Positions 6,032 through 63,485 of a stretch of DNA of 64,000 nucleotides are shown piece after piece; the stretch's first letter is position 1, and each line of letters opens with the position of its first letter. The notes under the pieces were generated by a model, which had not been told where the DNA came from, searched no databases, and saw only the letters and a list, made by a program, of their open reading frames with translations. Position numbers and translations under genes: made by a program. This DNA is from an uncultured Actinomycetota bacterium (GTDB taxonomy: Bacteria; Actinomycetota; Actinomycetes; JACCUZ01): the NCBI GenBank assembly GCA_963784645.1, contig CAWARY010000020.1, forward strand, positions 86,899 through 150,898, given 5' to 3'.

Positions 6032-7930
6032 TCAGTCGGCGACGTGGTGCTGCTCGACCTCGGCGGGCAGCCCGGAGACGGTCTCGACGATGTCGCGGGC
6101 GATGTCCTGTGCCGTGAGCCCGATCTCGGCCAGGACCTCCTGCCGCTTGGCGTGGTCGAGGAACCGTAGCGGGATGCCGAAGTCGCGCAACGGGGTCGCG
6201 ACACGGGCGTCGCGGAGCGCCTGGGCGACCGCGCCGGAGACCCCGCCCCGCAGGCCGTCCTCCACCACGACGACCACGCCGACGTCGCGAGCCATCCGGA
6301 CGATCTCGGCCGGCACCGGCTTGACCCAGCGGGGGTCGACGACGGTGACGCCGATGCCCTGCTGGGCGCAGCGTTGCGCGACGTCGAGGCAGGTCTCGAC
6401 CATCGAGCCGACAGCGACCACCAGGACGTCGTCGCCGTCGCGCAGCATGATGTCGACGACGCCGACCCGGTCGAGAGCGGGCAGGTCGGGGCCGACCGCG
6501 CCGGTCGGGTAGCGCACCACCGTGGGAGCGTCGTCGACCGCGACGGCCTCGCGCAGCTCCTCGCGGAGGGTGACGGCGTCGCGGGGGGCGGCCAGCCGCA
6601 GTCCCGGCACCGCCTGGAGCACGGTCATGTCCCACATGCCGTGGTGGCTGGCGCCGTCGGGGCCGGTGACTCCGGACCGGTCGAGGCAGAACGTGACCCC
6701 GCAGCGGTGCAGGGCCACGTCCATGACGACCTGGTCGAACGCCCGGTTGAGGAACGTCGCGTAGACGGCGACCACCGGGTGCAGCCCGCCGAGCGCCAGC
6801 CCGGCGGCCGATGTCGCCGCGTGCTGCTCGGCGATGCCCACGTCGAAGATGCGGTCCGGGTACGCCGCCGCGAACGCGTCCAGCCCGGTCGGGATCAGCA
6901 TGGCGGCGGTGATGCCGACGACGTCGGGGCGGTCGGCGCCGATCGCGACGAGCTCGTCGGAGAAGACCTGGGTCCACGCGGTCCCGGTGGCCGCCAGCGG
7001 CTGCCCCGTCTCCGGGTCGATCACACCGATGCCGTGGAAGTGGTCGGCGGTGTCGTCCTCGGCGTACTTGTAGCCGAGGCCCTTGCGAGTGATGGCGTGC
7101 ACCAGCACCGGGCCCTGGTAGCCGCGGGCCCGACGAAGAGCGTGCTCCAGCGCGTCCATGTCGTGGCCGTCGACCGGACCGATGTACTTCAGCCCGAGGT
7201 CCTCGAACATGCCCTGCGGGGCGACGACGTCCTTGAGGCCCTTCTTCACCCCGTGCAGCGCCTCGTACAAGGGCGCGCCGACGACCGGTGTCCGACCGAG
7301 CACCTGCTTGCCCCACTCGAGGAACCGCTCGTAGCCACGGGTGGTGCGCAGCGTCGCCAGGTGGTGCGCGAGACCGCCGATGGTGGGCGCGTAGGAGCGC
7401 TCGTTGTCGTTGACGACGATGACCAGGCGGCGGGTGTGGTCGGCCGCGATGTTGTTGAGCGCCTCCCACGCCATGCCGCCGGTGAGCGACCCGTCGCCGA
7501 CGACGGCCACGACGGTGCGCTCCGTCTCGCCGCGCAGCTGGAACGCCTTGGCCATGCCGTCGGCGTAGGACAGGGCGGTCGAGGCGTGCGAGTTCTCGAT
7601 CACGTCGTGCTCGGACTCGGCGCTGCTCGGGTAGCCGGACAGGCCGCCCTTCTGCCGGAGCGTCGGGAAGCGGGCTGCCCGGCCGGTCACGATCTTGTGG
7701 ACGTAGGCCTGGTGGCCCGTGTCCCACAGGATCCGGTCGCGCGGGGAGTCGAAGACGCGGTGCAGCGCCAGGGTGAGCTCGACGGCTCCGAGGTTGGGCC
7801 CGAGGTGGCCACCCGTCCTGGAGACCGAGGCGATCAGGAAGGTGCGGATCTCCTCCGCGAGGGCGGCCAGCTGCTCGTGGTCGAGCGGGCGCAGGTCCTC
7901 AGGTCCGTGGATCGAGTCCAGCAGGCCCAC
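6032..7930 (-). CDS. dxs: 1-deoxy-D-xylulose-5-phosphate synthase
   Basis: TPP-binding GDG..N motifs ([21 protein letters not shown]), the transketolase pyrimidine-binding domain and the C-terminal domain are all present. The start was chosen at GTG 7930 ([16 protein letters not shown]), which matches the canonical DXS N-terminus. The track ORF extends to 8056. Confidence 0.85.
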
Positions 7931-8463: not shown

Positions 8464-9588
8464 TCAGCCGAGGGCGAGCAGGAGCACCTGGCTGTCCTGG
8501 CCGGCAGTGAAGTTGTTGTCGCTGACCAGCAGCACCGACTGCCGGCCGTCCGGCAGCCGCGGGCCACGGGTCATGCCCTCGACGTTGTCCAGCGGCTGCC
8601 TGCCGACGGTCGAGGGGAGCTGGAGCAGCAGCGTCTTGCGGGCCGCCCGCAGGCCGGGCACCGCATCGATGTCCGCTACCCCGGAGACATCCGTGGCGCC
8701 CGGCAGCGCGGCCCGGTAGATGCGGATGGTGTTGCCCGCGCCCACGGAGAAGGAGCGCTCCATGGCGAGCAGGAACTGGCCGTTCAGCGGGAGCAGCTCG
8801 ACCAGGCCGTTGACACTGAACACCGGCGACGGGGCGACGACCGGCTCCGTGCGGTAGACGAACTCGCGGGCGACGCCGTAGTGACCGAGGTGGTAGCGCA
8901 GGATGCGCGCCGGGCTGCCCGTGGACGTGGACGCAGCCGGACCGTCCTGGAGAAGCGCGTTCTCGGCGCCGACGAACAGCTGCTGCCCGTCGGGGGACAC
9001 CGCCGCCGACTCGAAGCCGAGGTTCTGCCGTACGCCCGAGGTGGGTGTCGGGTCGTAGTAGCCGGGCACGGGCAGCCCCCGCAGCTGCCGGCCGGACAGG
9101 TCGAACTCGCGCACGAAGGGCGCGATGCTTCGGGACGAGATGCCCTCCGAGGTGACGACGAGCGTGTCCTGCGGAGTCAGGGTGAGACCTTCGGGGTCGA
9201 GGCTCTGGGCCGGGAACGGCTGGCCGTCGGCACCGAGCAGCGTCGTTGTCGCCAGCACGGTCACGTCGCCGGCGTCCAGCGAGCCGTCGCTGATGTCGAT
9301 CGACAGCGTGTAGAACCGCGCGGGTGAGCTCGTCGGGGTGAAGCCAGCACCCTGGTCGTCGGACAGCGCGTAGTAGACGCCGCGCCGCGTGTCGTAGGAC
9401 AACGAGGACAACCCGCCGACCACGGTGCCGCCGAACGTCGCACCGGCGGCGATCGTGGCGCCGCCGAGGTACTCGAGGTCGGCCGCCGGTCCGCGCGGGC
9501 CGGTGGCGTTGGCGGGGCCGACCAGAAGGCCGGAGGCGAGCCCGGTGACGGCACCGAGGAGAGCGACACGACGGAGCGGGACGAGCAT
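8464..9588 (-). CDS. Secreted esterase-like / phytase-like family protein
   Basis: A signal peptide, MLVPLRRVALLGAVTGLASGLLVGPANA, is followed by a Gly/Thr/Ser-rich beta-propeller-like repeat composition typical of the phytase-esterase-like family. Confidence 0.55.
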   Translation of the reverse strand: MLVPLRRVALLGAVTGLASGLLVGPANATGPRGPAADLEYLGGATIAAGATFGGTVVGGLSSLSYDTRRGVYYALSDDQGAGFTPTSSPARFYTLSIDISDGSLDAGDVTVLATTTLLGADGQPFPAQSLDPEGLTLTPQDTLVVTSEGISSRSIAPFVREFDLSGRQLRGLPVPGYYDPTPTSGVRQNLGFESAAVSPDGQQLFVGAENALLQDGPAASTSTGSPARILRYHLGHYGVAREFVYRTEPVVAPSPVFSVNGLVELLPLNGQFLLAMERSFSVGAGNTIRIYRAALPGATDVSGVADIDAVPGLRAARKTLLLQLPSTVGRQPLDNVEGMTRGPRLPDGRQSVLLVSDNNFTAGQDSQVLLLALG

Positions 9589-9702: not shown

Positions 9703-11130
9703 TCAGCTCGCCCGGACCGCCGTCATCTCGCGCACCTCGGAATACCGCGCACGGACCGAGGGCGTCGGGTCGGCCTCGAACGTCTGTGACCGCGCCGTCT
9801 CCCAGGTGGGTGCCTCGTCGGTGCCGGCGAGCACCCAGGCAGCCTGGCGGGCAGCGCCGTCGGCGACGTACTCCCCCGGTTCCGGCACGACCACCGGGCA
9901 GCCGAGGACAGCGGGCGCGAGCCGGCGCACCGCCTCGGACCGGGCTCCCCCGCCGACGAGCAGCACCCGGCGCACGTCCGCGCCCTGGTCGCGCAGGGCG
10001 TCCAGCCCGTCGGCCAGACCGCAGAGCAGGCCCTCGACCGCGGCCCGCGCGAGGTGTGCCGGTGTGGTGGAGGTCAGCGTGAGCCCGTGCAGCGCCCCGG
10101 TCGCGTCCGGCCGGTCGGGGGTGCGCTCACCCTCGAGGTACGGCACGAGCACCAGACCGTCGGCACCGGCGGGCGCAGCGAGCGCCAGTGCCGAGAGACC
10201 TGCATGGTCGGTGCCGAGCAGGCCCGCGGTGGCGTCCAGCACCCGCGAGGCGTTGAGCGTGCACACCAGCGGCAGGTAGCGGCCGGTGGCGTCGGCGAAG
10301 CCCGCCACGATCCCTGACGGGTCCCGCGCCGGAACGCCGGCGACCGCGCTCACGACACCCGAGGTCCCCACCGAGACGACGACGTCTCCGGGTCCCGCCC
10401 CCACGCCCAGCGCGGCCGCGGCGTTGTCGCCGGCGCCGGGCCCGAGGACCAGCGAGCCGGCCCGGCCGGCCGCCTCGGCGGGGCCGATGACCGCCGGCAC
10501 GGCCAGCGCCCGGCCGAACCCGCGCTCGAGCAGGTCGGGCCGGTAGGCCTCGCTGACCGCCGACCAGTAGCCGGTGCCGCTCGCGTCCGACCGGTCGGTG
10601 CGGAGCGCATCGAGCCCCGACGGCCCCCCGAGGTGGCCGAGCAGCCGCCAGGTCAGCCAGTCGTGCGGCAGGCAGACGGCCTCGGCGCGGACCGCGACGT
10701 CGGGCTCGTGCTCGGCGAACCAGCGCAGCTTCGCGACGGTGATCGACGCCACCGGCACCACCCCGACGGCGTCTGCCCAGGCCCGGCCGCCGCCGAGCTC
10801 GTCGACGAGGTCGTGCGCTGCCGCCGCCGAGCGGGTGTCGTTCCACAGCAGCGCCGGGCGCACCACCGCACCCGACGCGTCGAGGCAGACCATGCCGTGC
10901 TGCTGACCGCCCACCGAGAGGGCCGCCACGTCGTCCAGGCCGCCGGCCGCCGCTGCGGCCACCTGGAAGGCGTCCCACCACGCGGCCGGGTCGACCTCGG
11001 TGCCGTCCGGGTGCGGCGCCCGGCCGAAGCGCACCAGCGCGCCGGTCGCCGCGTCCCGGACGACCACCTTGCACGCCTGCGTCGAGGAGTCGACGCCGGC
11101 GACGAGGCGGTGCTGCGTGTCGTCCGGCAT
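9703..11130 (-). CDS. xylB: Xylulokinase
   Basis: This is an FGGY-family sugar kinase ([14 protein letters not shown]..., ...[18 protein letters not shown]). It lies immediately downstream of xylA with a 2-nt gap. Confidence 0.8.
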
Positions 11131-55601: not shown

Positions 55602-57698
<2,097 letters not shown>

Positions 57699-57938
57699 CC
57701 GCCGAGGCTACCGGCGGGCCGGGACAAGGCCCCCGGGCCGCTCCCCGCGACACGCCGTGACGTACCTGTGACGCTGCTGGAGTTCGTCCGTGCTGTGAGA
57801 TGGGCAACAGTAGACAAGCCGGAACGGCCTCTACGCGCAGAGCGAACCAATACTCTGGGGGTCCGGGAACGAACCGGTATGGCCGACGTGTTGACTAGGA
57901 CATCCGAGCACCACTGCACCACGAGAAGAGAGGGCGAC

Positions 57939-58169
57939 GTGACTTCTGCACTTGCCTCGCACCCTCCGCTGACCGCCGCTGACCGCTGCGACCGCTGCGG
58001 CGCACAGGCCTACATCCGGGTGACGATGCCTTCCGGCGGAGAGCTCTTGTTCTGCGCCCACCACGGCCACGCCCACGAGAACAAGCTGCGCGAGCTCGCT
58101 GCCGAGATCCACGACGACAGCTCCCAGCTGACCGCGACGCCCGCCGCTGCTCCCGACGTGGAGCGCTGA
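57939..58169 (+). CDS. Small Cys/His-rich (zinc-ribbon-like) protein of 76 aa
   Basis: GAGAGGG lies 5 nt upstream of the GTG. The motifs CDRCGAQAYIRV....LLFCAHH are present. The gene is divergent from parE. Confidence 0.45.
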   Translation: MTSALASHPPLTAADRCDRCGAQAYIRVTMPSGGELLFCAHHGHAHENKLRELAAEIHDDSSQLTATPAAAPDVER

Positions 58170-58654
58170 GCCGCAGCTCGCCCGCACGACCACCGAAGGG
58201 CCCCGGACATCGTCCGGGGCCTTTCGTCGTCTCCCCGGATGGTGCATGCGCACCACAGGCCCTGCACCCACCTGTCGCTGCGCAGAAGTCTGGTCGCTCC
58301 TCCTTTGTGGTGGTGGTCGTGGCCGTCCCTCGTGGCGGTGCCTGCCGGCGGTCGCAAGCGCCACCCCCCGGACTCCCTCGTCACGCAGGCAGAAGTGACT
58401 TGTGTGCCGGCTCGAGGTCGTGCAGGTATGGCCCGGACGAGCAGCCGACCGACGAGTCCCGTTTCGCCGGGCGCAGTCCGGGCAGTCGGTCACTCGTGAT
58501 ACTTCGATGGGTATGGCGCGCCGTGGCCCTGTTCCTCGGCCGCAAGGCCTGGGCTGCCTGGCAGCGGCGACGCGACCAGCAGGGCCACGCCGACCCCGAC
58601 CGGCGCCGGGCCCCGCGCTGACGGAGGCTGACCCGCGCTGACAGGCTGGGGGCC

Positions 58655-59689
58655 ATGAACCCCGCGGTGCTCGTGGCTCGCCTGTGGCGGCGCGTCGAGC
58701 TGCGGCTGGCCCGCCTCCTGTGGCGGCGGGGGTGGCGGGTGCGCCTGCTGTCGTTCAGCTCCTACGGCGTGAGCGTGGCGCCTGGGCGGCCCGGCTGGGT
58801 CCGGCTCATCGGGCGTGCACTGCTCACCCACACACCGGGTCCCGAGGCCGAGCTCGTCCGGGGCTGGCACCGCTTCATGACGATCCCGCTCGAGGGTGTC
58901 CCGGTCGACGTCACCGTCGGTGGGGTCAGCGCGTCGGTGCGCACCGGTCCCGGCGGTTATGTCGACCACCTCCTCGCAGCCGACCTGACGCCCGGCTGGC
59001 ACGAGCTGACGATGTCCAGCGCCCACGGCGAGGTGGCCCCCGGGCGGGTCCGCATCGTCGGCCCGGACGAGACGTCCGGCCTGGTGAGCGACATCGACGA
59101 CACCGTGATCATCACCGCGCTCCCGCGACCGCTTCGGGCGTTCTGGAACACCTTCGTCCGCCACGAGTCGACCCGGCGGCCGGTTCCGGGGATGGCCGAG
59201 CTCTTCCACCGGCTCCCCGTCGGGGACCCGAGACCGTTCACGGCGTACGTCTCGACCGGGCCTTGGAACGTCGCGCCGAGCCTCGAGCGCTTCCTGGACC
59301 GGCACGGCTACCCCCCGGGCCCTCTGCTCATGACCGACTGGGGCCCCACCGACGAGCGGTGGTTCCGGTCCGGGCGGCAGCACAAGCACGATGCGCTGCG
59401 TCAGCTCCTCGCCGACCTGCCGGGCCTGACCTGGACCCTGGTGGGCGACGACGGGCAGCACGACCCGGCCCTGTACGACGACCTGGTGGCCGAGCACCCG
59501 GACCGGGTGCGACTGGTGCTGATCCGCCAGCTCACGGAGACCGAGCAGATCCTCACCCACGGCACGCCCACGGCGAGGCCGGGCGAGGGCGCCGGCGACC
59601 GCCCGGCGCGGCCCGACGTCCCGGTGCTACGCGCAGGCGACGGGCACGCCCTCGCCCGCTCCGCCGAGGGACTGCGCCCCCGTCCTTGA
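58655..59689 (+). CDS. App1-like phosphatase domain protein (DUF2183)
   Basis: ...LVSDIDDTVIIT... is a DxDxT-type HAD-like motif. ...WTLVGDDGQHDPALY... fits the App1 phosphatidate-phosphatase family. Confidence 0.6.
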   Translation: MNPAVLVARLWRRVELRLARLLWRRGWRVRLLSFSSYGVSVAPGRPGWVRLIGRALLTHTPGPEAELVRGWHRFMTIPLEGVPVDVTVGGVSASVRTGPGGYVDHLLAADLTPGWHELTMSSAHGEVAPGRVRIVGPDETSGLVSDIDDTVIITALPRPLRAFWNTFVRHESTRRPVPGMAELFHRLPVGDPRPFTAYVSTGPWNVAPSLERFLDRHGYPPGPLLMTDWGPTDERWFRSGRQHKHDALRQLLADLPGLTWTLVGDDGQHDPALYDDLVAEHPDRVRLVLIRQLTETEQILTHGTPTARPGEGAGDRPARPDVPVLRAGDGHALARSAEGLRPRP

Positions 59690-59915
59690 CCCAGTGTTGG
59701 TCGGTCCTCGGCGTGCCCGGGGGGCGATCCGGGGTAGTCGCCGTGCATGGACGGGGAGCGGCGCCGACGCCGGGAGGACCTGCTGCGACGCCTCGAGCAG
59801 CGGCGCCCGCGCCGCAGCTACCTGCTGCGGCGGCTGGACGAGCTGGCCCGCCGCCGGGCCAACCGCCGTCGTGGGCAGAGCGGCGAGGATCCGTCCTGAC
59901 CGGTGCGGTCGGTTC

Positions 59916-60368
59916 CTACCCGTCCCCGAGCGCGAGCAGGTCGCGACGGATCTGGGTGACCACCACGACAGCCGGCACACCCAGCTCGGCGGCGATCTCG
60001 CGCGAGGTCATCCGGAACACCATCGCCATGGCGAGGCACTCGTACGGAACCGGGAGCGGCGCACTCGCCGGCGACGTACCGGACGGTGAGAGCGCCGTCA
60101 GCAGCTCCCGGGTGAGGTGGGTCGTGAGCGACGTCCGACGGTCCCACGGGGCCTCGTCGCGGACGAGCCGCACCATACTGCTGACGGCCGCATCGGCGGC
60201 CTGGCGCCGGTCAGGGACGAGGAGCAGACCGGTGCGGTAGAGATGCTCGCCGTGCAGGTCGCACAGATCGTGGACTGCCTCGACCTCGAGGCTCAGCGGC
60301 GGGTCGGCCGCGTCGCGCGGGGGCCTTGGGCGACGTCGGCCCACCTCGGTCTGCCACGAAGCCCCCAT
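59916..60368 (-). CDS. Small sigma-70 region-4-like HTH protein of 150 aa; function unknown
   Basis: The C-terminus, ECLAMAMVFRMTSREIAAELGVPAVVVVTQIRRDL, resembles a sigma region 4 / LuxR-type HTH. The upstream segment DRRQAADAAVSSMVRLVRDEAPWDR resembles sigma region 2. The start is uncertain. Confidence 0.35.
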   Translation of the reverse strand: MGASWQTEVGRRRPRPPRDAADPPLSLEVEAVHDLCDLHGEHLYRTGLLLVPDRRQAADAAVSSMVRLVRDEAPWDRRTSLTTHLTRELLTALSPSGTSPASAPLPVPYECLAMAMVFRMTSREIAAELGVPAVVVVTQIRRDLLALGDG

Positions 60369-60489
60369 GCTGTGCCTCCGACCCTCGGGCTGCCGGGGCT
60401 GGGGCAGCGCGACCTCGCTCGATGTGTCCCCGGCCTACCCGGATTCTCACGACCCGACACCCGGCCTGCCGACGCTTCGGCCCGCAGGC

Positions 60490-60705
60490 CTAGCGGTCTT
60501 CGCTCGCGAAGGACTCCAGATTGCTCCCGTAGGCGTCGGCGCAGCCGGCGCAGCGCGCCGCGCTGTACGGCCGATCGACGGGCCGCAGCTGCTCAGGGTG
60601 CCGGATGCGTGGGCAGTCCTCGCGGGTGTGGAACCGGGACGACGTCTGCGGCGAGCCCTCGGCGCTGTACGGCTCGACCCATCCGCTGGGCGGGGTGTAC
60701 GTCAT
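60490..60705 (-). CDS. Small Cys-containing hypothetical protein of 71 aa
   Basis: Translation begins MTYTPPSGWVEPYSAEGSPQTSSRFHTREDCPRIRHPEQLRPVDRPYSAARCAGCADAYG.... GAGGA lies 8 nt upstream. It has four Cys residues. Confidence 0.3.
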   Translation of the reverse strand: MTYTPPSGWVEPYSAEGSPQTSSRFHTREDCPRIRHPEQLRPVDRPYSAARCAGCADAYGSNLESFASEDR

Positions 60706-61069
60706 GGGGTGTCCTCGGGGCCGGGAGGTACGCCTGCCCCGGGCCTCGGAGCCTGCGTCGGGCAAACCCTACGTCGGCACGGGGCCGCGGGCAGGCACAT
60801 CGGCAGTCGGACCGACGGGCGGGTTGCGTGGGCGGACCATTGTTCCGATGCAGCGATCAGGTCGGTCCCCGCACACTCCCGGGCACGCGACGTCCACGCC
60901 CCGTGGGGCGTCCCGGACAGCCCGGGTGGGTGCGCAGGTGGCAGAGCGGGCGGCCGGGTCTGCACAGCGACCCTCACGCGGGGCCGCTGACCAGCGCCGC
61001 GACAGAGATGGCGAGCGCGTCGGCTACGCGGATCGAGCTCAGCGTCCGGTGCTGCGGGCGGCCGGGTGC

Positions 61070-61303
61070 CTAGTCGGTCTCGTCATCCTGATGCGCAGAT
61101 GACATGGGGAGGATGAGGAGGCGGCCGGTGGGTCGAAGCTCATCCGCCCAGTACAACCGCCGGAGCACGAGACCGGCATCGGTCTCGAACCGCACCAACG
61201 CGCGCGGGCGGCGACCCTCGACGTACCGCCACAGGACCGCGGCGGGTCGCCAGTCACCCATGTACCTCACCAGGACGACCTCGCCCGCCACGTCCGCCCC
61301 CAT
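61070..61303 (-). CDS. Small hypothetical protein of 77 aa; low confidence
   Basis: MGADVAGEVVLVRYMGDWRPAAVLWRYVEGRRPRALVRFETDAGLVLRRLYWADELRPTGRLLILPM... is protein-like, but there is no strong RBS. Confidence 0.25.
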   Translation of the reverse strand: MGADVAGEVVLVRYMGDWRPAAVLWRYVEGRRPRALVRFETDAGLVLRRLYWADELRPTGRLLILPMSSAHQDDETD

Positions 61304-61581
61304 GCTGGCGGCGCCGCGCGTTCCCTGACCCCCCACGGGAGCGGAGCGCGGCGCCAGCTCCGATCTTCCCCTCCAGCAGCCGGCGCCGCCACTGCCCGAT
61401 CGGGCGACAGCCTCATCCGCAGCGCTGATCGTCCACGACGGAGCGTGATCACCTGGGACGGCTCGCCAGACTCCGGTCGTCGGCACTGGAGGCGAGGACA
61501 GCCTGAGTGAGTCCTTCCGACTCGGCCGCACGTGAGTCGCCGGGGACGCGCGGCGTCGGGTGCGTCCTGAGAAGATCGGGC

Positions 61582-62898: not shown

Positions 62899-63357
62899 TC
62901 ACGCGGGAGCTGACGGCCGGAGCAGCTGCCGTGCACGGGCGACTGCGAGCAGACCGACAGCCGCGGTGGTCAGCAGCAGGGCGACCCCGCAGGCGACCGA
63001 CCGGCCGGACAAGGCGTCATCGGTGAGATCGCCGTCGAACAGCCCGAAGAGGACGCTGATCAGGCAGATCGCGCCCAGGAGGATGGCCGAGACCTTGCCG
63101 ACCGGCGGCCGGACGTCGCGCGCGGCCAGCAATGCCAGGCCGACCTCCACAGCCACCACGGGCAGAGGTACTGCGGACACGGTGTCGAAGCCCCACACCT
63201 CACCCCACGTGTTGACCCCCGAGGAGACGCCCTCGACGCCGGCGACCAGGTCGACGGCGAGCAAGACCACCGTTGCGAGGACGACACGGCGACCGGAGCC
63301 CACGGACGACACCGTACGCGCGGGAGAAGCGACCTGGGGCAAGCAGCGAGGAGACAT
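62899..63357 (-). CDS. Hypothetical membrane protein with 4 predicted TM helices
   Basis: VVLATVVLLAVDLVAGV...VAVEVGLALLAA...ILLGAICLISVLFGLF...VALLLTTAAVGLLAV are hydrophobic segments. The start is uncertain. Confidence 0.4.
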   Translation of the reverse strand: MSPRCLPQVASPARTVSSVGSGRRVVLATVVLLAVDLVAGVEGVSSGVNTWGEVWGFDTVSAVPLPVVAVEVGLALLAARDVRPPVGKVSAILLGAICLISVLFGLFDGDLTDDALSGRSVACGVALLLTTAAVGLLAVARARQLLRPSAPA

Positions 63358-63485
63358 CGACCGATCGAGAAGGACGCACATTCCCACTCGTGAGTGAGAG
63401 CACTTCTGCCTGACAGGTCCACGAGCGGCGACTACCGGAAGCGTGCAGGTCGAGGGCGAGCTCAGCGATGCTCGGGAGGCATCGC

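Follow-up and report, generated by a model that had tools for sequence, protein, structure and literature searches.

Genuine small genes and ordinary spacers in a gene-poor 1.9-kb region of an uncultured actinomycete: probably the left part of a variable slot between App1 and hrdB

Introduction

Positions 59690 to 61581 of a 64,000-nucleotide stretch of DNA from an uncultured Actinomycetota bacterium (contig CAWARY010000020.1; the whole stretch is hereafter called the window) raise the question of why so few genes are found there. The region, 1.9 kb in length, lies between the genes of an App1-type phosphatase and a Zn-dependent alcohol dehydrogenase (ADH). An earlier reading of the letters alone (hereafter the sequence-only reading) described three short open reading frames (ORFs) on the minus strand, here termed sig150, cys71 and orf77, an Arg-rich ORF on the plus strand, here termed arg50, and a stretch without any ORF. 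It suspected small regulatory proteins, small RNAs (sRNAs) or the remnants of degraded genes. All four ORFs were found where that reading had placed them, and both flanking genes were matched by Pfam. The stretch 60706-61069 (364 bp) is free of ORFs as claimed, and homologue searches bore out the description of the small ORFs as orphans or near-orphans.

The analysis reported here suggests that the apparent gene desert is a variable slot with genuine small genes and ordinary spacers. More precisely, the 1.9-kb region would be the left part of a variable-cargo slot in a Sporichthyaceae-like actinomycete. We assign a probability of about 0.65 to this reading as a whole.

Results and Discussion

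Coding content of the region

The four small ORFs together cover 1056 of the 1892 bp (56%). In a GC frame plot, all four gave the right third-position signal, and no frame signal was seen at about 60760-60950. The GC content at third codon positions (GC3) was 0.88 for arg50, 0.87 for sig150, 0.92 for cys71 and 0.84 for orf77. The ORFs were compared with their counterparts in the closest relative, a contig of a metagenome-assembled genome (MAG) hereafter called L002. The ratios of non-synonymous to synonymous substitution rates (dN/dS) were 0.39, 0.32, 0.25 and 0.20 for arg50, sig150, cys71 and orf77, respectively, with binomial P values of 0.086, 2.6e-4, 0.019 and 4.8e-4. The sig150, cys71 and orf77 proteins of this genome are present in a collection of 15 billion proteins. 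No paralogues of the four proteins were found in the 64-kb window. As judged from the frame signal and the substitution patterns, the four small ORFs are genuine protein genes, each of which appears to be under purifying selection.

Fragments of a single disrupted gene, which according to the sequence-only reading would turn the region into a pseudogene, were considered and rejected. The homology profiles of the three minus-strand ORFs are unrelated, and the dN/dS values of 0.20-0.39 show purifying selection on each ORF. No indels were found inside the ORFs in the comparison with L002, against 34 gap columns in the spacer, and cys71 belongs to a free-standing family of proteins of 61-97 aa. 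No broken large gene or hidden RNA gene was found to explain the low coding density. The low density would result from small genes with upstream regions of their own and from about 250 bp of unconstrained spacer.

A variable slot between App1 and hrdB

One genome per species was scanned with the App1 protein, resulting in 16 loci. The identity of App1 to the window copy was 97% in L002, 88% in L003, 81% in L004, 79% in L005 and 68% in L006. The NCBI label on the L002 proteins is Sporichthyaceae bacterium, and L006 is a Sporichthyaceae MAG. In the window, the GC content of which is about 70-75%, the surrounding genes are a GyrB/ParE-like gene, a DUF7455 gene, App1, ADH, a 162-aa membrane-like ORF (mem162) and the 3' end of an hrdB-type principal sigma gene.

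DNA and protein comparisons with L002-L006 showed that the genes from App1 leftwards are syntenic in the relatives. The content between App1 and hrdB, compared by blastn and tblastn, was different in each of these genomes, and the hrdB or mem162 gene returned 2.9-5.8 kb past App1. The slot of L003 contains five minus-strand genes, which encode a cys71 homologue, a 57-aa transmembrane (TM) protein and proteins of 265, 142 and 286 aa. The slots of L004 and L005 contain unrelated large genes, and in L006 hrdB is reached after 2.9 kb. No counterpart of ADH was found in any relative locus fetched, the L002 contig stopping short of that point. Among the relatives, mem162 was seen again in L004 only. 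The GC3 values of ADH and mem162 are 0.86 and 0.84, respectively, and those of core genes are 0.92-0.96. Since ADH and mem162 show lower GC3 and are patchy in the relatives, the variable slot seems to reach past the 1.9-kb region to hrdB.

The slot would be bounded by the conserved App1-arg50 pair on one side and by the pair of the membrane protein and hrdB on the other. Its cargo in the window would be orf77, cys71 and sig150, located on the minus strand in separate frames, and then ADH. The coordinates of the features are listed in Table 1.

Table 1. Features of the region and its flanks. Positions are those of the window; identities and gap columns refer to the comparison with L002.
Feature	Positions	Strand	Remarks
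App1-type phosphatase	58655-59689		PF09949, E=1.5e-48
Spacer between App1 stop and arg50	59690-59746	+	88% identity
arg50	59747-59899	+	50 aa, Arg-rich (19 Arg), isoelectric point 11.9
sig150	59916-60368	-	150 aa; GGAGG 6 nt before ATG; sigma2-like domain at about residues 30-92, sigma4-like helix-turn-helix (HTH) at about residues 105-147
Spacer between cys71 and sig150	60369-60489	-	78% identity, 9 gap columns
cys71	60490-60705	-	71 aa, nested in a 91-aa TTG ORF; GAGG 7 nt before ATG
Block upstream of cys71	60706-60790	-	91% identity, 1 gap column
Spacer	60791-61040		57% identity, 34 gap columns; least conserved segment
orf77	61070-61303	-	77 aa, nested in a 153-aa ORF; likely start GTG 61291 (73 aa)
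Block upstream of orf77	61292-61416		125 nt, 94% identity, 1 gap column
Region upstream of ADH	61417-61581		L002 similarity ends at 61417
ADH (Zn-dependent alcohol dehydrogenase)	ATG 61582, ends 62754		PF08240 and PF00107
mem162 (162-aa membrane-like ORF)	62899-63387

arg50, a conserved Arg-rich micro-protein

The Arg-rich ORF, which the sequence-only reading had regarded as probably spurious, turned out to be real, and it has the widest conservation of the four small genes. In the window and each of L002-L005, App1 is immediately followed by an Arg-rich ORF of about 50 aa. The sequence TCCTTGAC at the App1 stop codon is invariant across these five genomes, and the similarity of the window to L003-L005 runs past the App1 stop through 59847-59871. 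In the five-genome alignment, variation was seen at 30 of 40 third positions and at 16 of 82 first and second ones (chi-square P=1e-8). Codon positions 1 and 2 account for the invariant columns, and the third positions of CGN codons are free to vary. The protein includes two copies of a 14-aa unit, corresponding to an internal tandem duplication of 42 nt. An indel of 3 nt in L002 is in frame. In the L003 homologue, a 1-nt deletion in a run of Arg codons (at about 7095-7125) splits the ORF; this deletion is most likely an assembly error and not a real frameshift.

The exact arg50 sequence is absent from the 15-billion-protein collection. We therefore concluded that arg50 was never called in the source genome and is an unannotated gene. 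A search of metagenomes based on the arg50 alignment gave 600 pattern matches, of which 0 were confirmed by tblastn, a weak negative for a sequence of such low complexity. Readthrough from App1 into arg50 was rejected, because the two share a frame in some genomes only and 2-3 stops lie between them. It would seem reasonable that arg50 is part of the conserved flank of the slot and is probably co-transcribed with App1. Its predicted amphipathic basic helix suggests that it may bind nucleic acids or membranes.

The arg50 and sig150 genes are convergent and separated by a gap of 16 nt (59899-59916). In L002, the stop codon of arg50 is lost, and the resulting 71-aa ORF enters the 3' end of the sigma-like gene (L002 7233-7275). 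The convergent transcripts must therefore overlap there.

sig150, an ECF-sigma homologue without the linker

The HTH protein sig150 had been suspected to be a pseudogenised sigma factor of the extracytoplasmic function (ECF) type. Regions homologous to the sigma2 and sigma4 domains were found in it in collinear order. Residues 30-70 matched the start of TIGR02983 (SigE family) with an E-value of 0.0011 and 18.9 bits against a cut-off of 141.6, and residues 110-142 matched Sigma70_r4_2 (PF08281) with an E-value of 0.0097 and 16 bits against a cut-off of 25.7. No match of sig150 to PF04542 (Sigma70_r2) was obtained at E<=1. The protein is below all curated cut-offs for ECF sigmas (Pfam Sigma70_r2/r4_2 and the NCBIfam ECF models).

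A word-indexed search of 5.8 billion cluster representatives retrieved only the cluster of sig150 itself and the L002 orthologue. When 1.8 billion representatives were scanned exhaustively with HMMER, one true ECF sigma was retrieved in addition, namely P0019 (E=4e-4), a metagenomic protein of 180 aa with full Sigma70_r2 and r4_2 domains. Two WD40 proteins from the same scan were rejected as spurious. By BLASTP and hhalign, residues 31-144 of sig150 align with residues 18-162 of P0019 (hhalign probability 97.1%, 34% identity over 114 columns). The alignment has one large gap of about 31 residues; the T(W/H)L helix of region 2.4 precedes it, and the LP motif at the opening of region 4 follows. 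The distance from this helix to the LP motif is 22 aa in sig150 and 52 aa in P0019, and about 12-18 residues stand in sig150 in place of the sigma3.2-like linker of ECF sigmas. Counted from the last sigma2 helix, the LP motif of sig150 is about 12 residues away. The absence of the linker is common to the L002 orthologue. On the basis of these alignments, sig150 is an ECF-sigma homologue that has both domains and is essentially without the sigma3.2-like linker.

The idea of a pseudogenised or frameshifted ECF sigma was thus not upheld, since both domains lie in one ORF and the missing part is the internal linker. A frameshift that would fuse the ORF with upstream sequence, as had been proposed, was checked and excluded. 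An in-frame stop precedes sig150 by 23 codons, and the end of cys71 is only 121 nt away, so that no frameshift can lengthen the ORF.

The substitutions between the window and L002 were further divided along the protein. The ratio of the proportions of non-synonymous and synonymous differences (pN/pS) was 0.82 over the first 17 residues and 0.29 over residues 18-150 (21 synonymous and 16 non-synonymous; binomial P=1.8e-4), with constraint in both the sigma2-like and the sigma4-like parts. No indels were found within the ORF. The ATG of sig150 reads ATC in L002, and a 2-nt indel upstream results there in a 173-aa sigma-like ORF that starts from GTG and has a different N-terminus. The NCBI annotation of the L002 orthologue covers the last 86 residues only. 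By these comparisons, sig150 is a real, lineage-restricted gene, the N-terminus of which appears to be unconstrained.

The closest known proteins are the ECF group 4 sigmas, namely SigL, SigH and SigE of M. tuberculosis, SigR and BldN of S. coelicolor, SigW of B. subtilis, and P0019. PDB entries 6dv9, 5zx2, 9m98, 6dxo and 5wuq represent the ECF sigmas of the comparison. Unlike these sigmas, sig150 has His in place of the Trp of the TWL motif and is known from two genomes only. An anti-sigma gene next door, common among ECF sigmas though not universal, was not recognised for sig150. Searches of PDB sequences with the single sig150 sequence and with a 2-row profile gave nothing meaningful. In E. 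coli sigmaE, the linker (residues 88-130, 43 residues) runs through the cleft of the active centre and through the RNA exit channel, and deletion of the linker of ECF sigmas abolishes full-length transcripts in tested cases (PMC6648896). The ability of sig150 to act as a sigma factor is doubtful.

The most likely course is that sig150 arose from an ECF sigma ancestor, of which it would have kept the domains for DNA and core binding, minus about 31 linker residues. We infer that the protein is still folded and used. Rather than a standard ECF sigma, it would most likely be a sigma of weak or non-canonical action, or a regulator of sigma descent that binds DNA or a partner. The SL domain of PhyR from Alphaproteobacteria (PDB 3t0y) is also among the known systems closest to sig150. 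This domain is a mimic of an ECF sigma and binds the anti-sigma NepR in place of RNA polymerase (RNAP). It is conceivable, and in our view quite unlikely, that sig150 is a non-sigma decoy resembling PhyR-SL without its receiver. Such a decoy would titrate an anti-sigma or compete for the RNAP core or -35 DNA, with cys71 as a possible metal-dependent partner.

orf77 and the possibility of decay

For orf77, the only homologues found among 5.8 billion proteins were those of its own 90% cluster. The ORF was present as described by the sequence-only reading, and its start was revised. In L002, a 1-nt indel between ATG 61303 and GTG 61291 would truncate the ORF from that ATG. From GTG 61291 on, the protein is the same in the window and L002, with changes that are synonymous or conservative (14 synonymous and 9 non-synonymous substitutions). 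Because the indel lies before the GTG and the protein is conserved after it, orf77 most likely starts at GTG 61291. The stop codon of orf77 is not kept in L002, where it reads CAA and 6 residues are added.

Sub-threshold matches of orf77 to the beta-barrel of Ku were obtained from three hidden Markov model (HMM) libraries (TIGR02772, E=0.0055; PF02735, E=0.045; phrog_4873, E=0.069). Residues 10-67 align with positions 124-180 of bacterial Ku, in its central beta-barrel, including a ...L.W.DE.R.. pattern. Unlike Ku, which has about 260-300 aa, orf77 covers only about one fifth of the protein and is far below the cut-offs (16.2 bits against 150 for TIGR02772, over 57 of 259 profile positions). 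A PDB sequence search with orf77 gave nothing meaningful, and no match to orf77 was found when an M. tuberculosis Ku sequence was compared with the window and the loci. The resemblance to Ku is regarded as a lead only.

These properties allow another interpretation, in which sig150, as an internally deleted ECF sigma, and orf77, as a fragment of Ku, are decaying DNA on the way out, and the apparent constraint reflects a short divergence. The lack of the linker, essential to those ECF sigmas that have been tested, would fit such decay, as would the loss of the sig150 ATG with the indel upstream, the weak Ku matches, and the disturbed start region and stop of orf77 in L002. The slot is also prone to recombination, and an IS256-family element adjoins it in L002. 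The synonymous excess described above, both in residues 18-150 of sig150 and in orf77, is nevertheless opposed to decay. Over the same period the adjacent spacer went down to 57% identity with many indels, whereas the ORFs acquired none. Furthermore, no similarity to Ku was found in other frames or in the flanks of orf77, nor by pairwise comparison or against the PDB. We therefore consider decay unlikely and retain the reading of sig150 and orf77 as genes in use.

cys71, a probable metal-binding miniprotein, and the possibility of an anti-sigma module

The 71-aa form of cys71 begins with MTYTPPSGW. Its family comprises 16 homologue clusters from soil-type metagenomes and MAGs, and 0 of the 16 contains a Pfam domain. 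The invariant residues include Y3, P5, P6, G8, E11, F25, H26, C31, R33, P46, Y47 and C55, and C52 is near-invariant. In the family alignment, the motif FH-x4-C...C-x2-C would provide four metal ligands, H26, C31, C52 and C55. cys71 is a member of a narrow family of small HCCC proteins without a Pfam model, and the conserved ligands suggest that it binds one metal ion, probably Zn.

The (H/C)-x4-C...C-x2-C spacing and the small beta-rich fold are like those of the N-terminal Zn domain of Ada (PF02805) and of viral Ada-like proteins. Foldseek gave weak matches of cys71 to viral Ada-like Zn-binding proteins (E 0.23-0.58). The AlphaFold2 model of cys71 had a predicted local distance difference test (pLDDT) score of 68.5 and no fold match in the PDB, and neither a PF02805 match nor an Ada N-terminal fold match was obtained.

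In L003 and in the JGI contigs L018-L021, the cys71 homologue is the first gene of a cluster and is followed by a small TM protein, a protein of about 260 aa, Holin-X (PF07332) and DUF3618. In the window and L002, the Holin-X/DUF3618 cluster is absent and sig150 follows cys71. Since the cys71 family heads this cluster elsewhere, the adjacency of cys71 and sig150 would have arisen by cluster replacement, and cys71 would here be split from its usual downstream cluster of membrane proteins.

Many actinobacterial ECF sigmas are held by Zn-binding anti-sigma (ZAS) factors, and cys71 and sig150 might form such a module, in which cys71, co-transcribed with sig150, sequesters it. The two genes share a strand, with 121 nt between them, and are neighbours in both sig150-bearing genomes. 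Like RsrA, RslA and RsiW, cys71 is small and rich in Cys and His and adjoins a sigma-like gene. Four metal ligands are conserved in cys71. Unlike ZAS factors, it has no H-x3-C-x2-C motif; the alignment reads YSAARC52xxC55, and the residue at -4 from C52 is Ser and not His. The gene order is opposite to the usual order of sigma and then anti-sigma. No match to an anti-sigma family was found for cys71 or among the neighbours of sig150 in Pfam or NCBIfam. No sigma gene was found near the cys71 homologues in L003 and L018-L021, where the family stands before the Holin-X/DUF3618 cluster. An anti-sigma module is therefore rather improbable. On present evidence the neighbours of sig150 are a convergent arg50 downstream and, upstream, a protein with a metal-binding motif that is not ZAS-like.

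Mobile-element and defence checks

Variable cargo and small orphan genes, one of them for an HTH/sigma-like protein, could also have been left by a prophage or an integrative element. The GC3 of part of the cargo is somewhat lower (0.84-0.87) than that of the core genes, and in L002 the end of the match to the window is abutted by the C-terminus/3' end of an IS256/Mutator-family transposase (8740-9061, minus strand; PF00872, E=5e-12), the contig ending inside this element. However, a search for tRNAs within 14 kb was negative, integrase and recombinase ORFs were not seen, and no flanking direct repeats of significance were detected. PHROGs gave no matches of note apart from the Ku-like one (E=0.069), PADLOC gave none of note, and neither sig150 nor cys71 had relatives among 2.9 million viral contigs. 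A mobile remnant is thus very unlikely, and a variable slot is preferred as the source of the cargo.

Non-coding DNA

The conserved block upstream of cys71 is presumed to contain its promoter and 5' untranslated region (UTR), in which TAGGGT (minus strand, 60771-60766) may serve as the -10 element. Scans for sigma-70 consensus promoters and terminators found nothing, a result that is uninformative at 73% GC. The stretch 60791-61040 is, by its divergence, an unconstrained spacer. Shadow ORFs across the ORF-free stretch had no Pfam match. When 57.5-64 kb was scanned with Rfam 15, the region 59690-61581 stayed empty at E-values of up to 5. A regulatory RNA (sRNA, riboswitch or leader) in 60706-61069, for which the length of ORF-free DNA and the lack of any promoter or terminator explaining it otherwise could be adduced, is highly improbable, since Rfam was empty, the spacer is the least conserved part, and conservation is limited to the 85 nt beside cys71, where a promoter and 5' UTR would be expected.

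The block upstream of orf77 is different, as its conservation is above that of synonymous sites. It has 6 substitutions relative to L002, which favour no reading frame, and its RNA fold is not significant (z=-1.1). The block contains a palindrome, GGCGCCGCGC-N26-GCGCGGCGCC, at 61310-61355, with GC-only arms of 10 bp and a loop of 25-26 nt. Copies were found in L002 (8642-8687) and L003 (4233-4277), with stems identical to those in the window and changes confined to the loop. The L003 copy is located at another locus, just after the DUF7455 gene; its match to the window extends over 51 nt at 92% identity, and the flanks are unrelated. A longer pattern that included the palindrome and conserved loop bases gave 0 matches in metagenome contigs. 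The palindrome could serve as an operator or form a hairpin, or it might be a tiny mobile unit.

Neighbouring genes

Between DUF7455 and App1, L002 (4130-5776) and L003 (4150-5850) contain an extra ORF of about 350 aa, the C-terminal part of which appears to be a YihY/BrkB-type membrane protein. It is absent from the corresponding interval of the window (58170-58654), so that App1 would have another hot spot of indels on the side away from the slot.

At the end of its contig, L006 contains the 3' end of hrdB twice, as near-identical copies 400 bp apart (9866-10133 and 10267-10544). These may be due to misassembly or local duplication.

The 232-aa ORF with DUF7455 (57471-58169) overlaps the GyrB/ParE-like gene on the opposite strand. 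The Pfam match and the ORFs of 74-75 aa in L004 and L005 suggest that the real DUF7455 gene consists of the last approximately 75 codons only.

Assessment

Several points weigh against the reading of the region as a variable slot with genuine small genes. A coding share of 56% is not shown to be unusual for this genome, in which a crude gene caller based on GC3 missed many genes. The reality of the genes rests on sequence comparison, frame signal and selection tests, and the selection tests of sig150 and orf77 rest on a single orthologous genome (L002), with 50 and 23 substitutions, respectively. In that genome the start codon of sig150 is lost and the upstream sequence is shifted, so that decay could be beginning there. 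Finally, a slot of small genes and spacers does not account for the palindrome-bearing non-coding block, with its conservation of 94%. The comparisons show that the genes are real, how they are related and distributed, and that they are under selection, and the biochemical roles proposed for their products are what we infer from them.

Conclusions

The apparent gene desert between App1 and ADH would be a variable slot in which genuine small genes are separated by ordinary spacers. For the annotation of these genomes, two gains result, namely a conserved Arg-rich micro-protein that gene callers missed and a family of probable HCCC metal-binding proteins without a Pfam model. The element of wider interest is sig150 only, and its impact and testability are limited because it is known from two uncultured genomes. 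As a linker-less ECF homologue under purifying selection, it might represent a minimal sigma with another mode of action, or else a regulator or decoy derived from a sigma factor.

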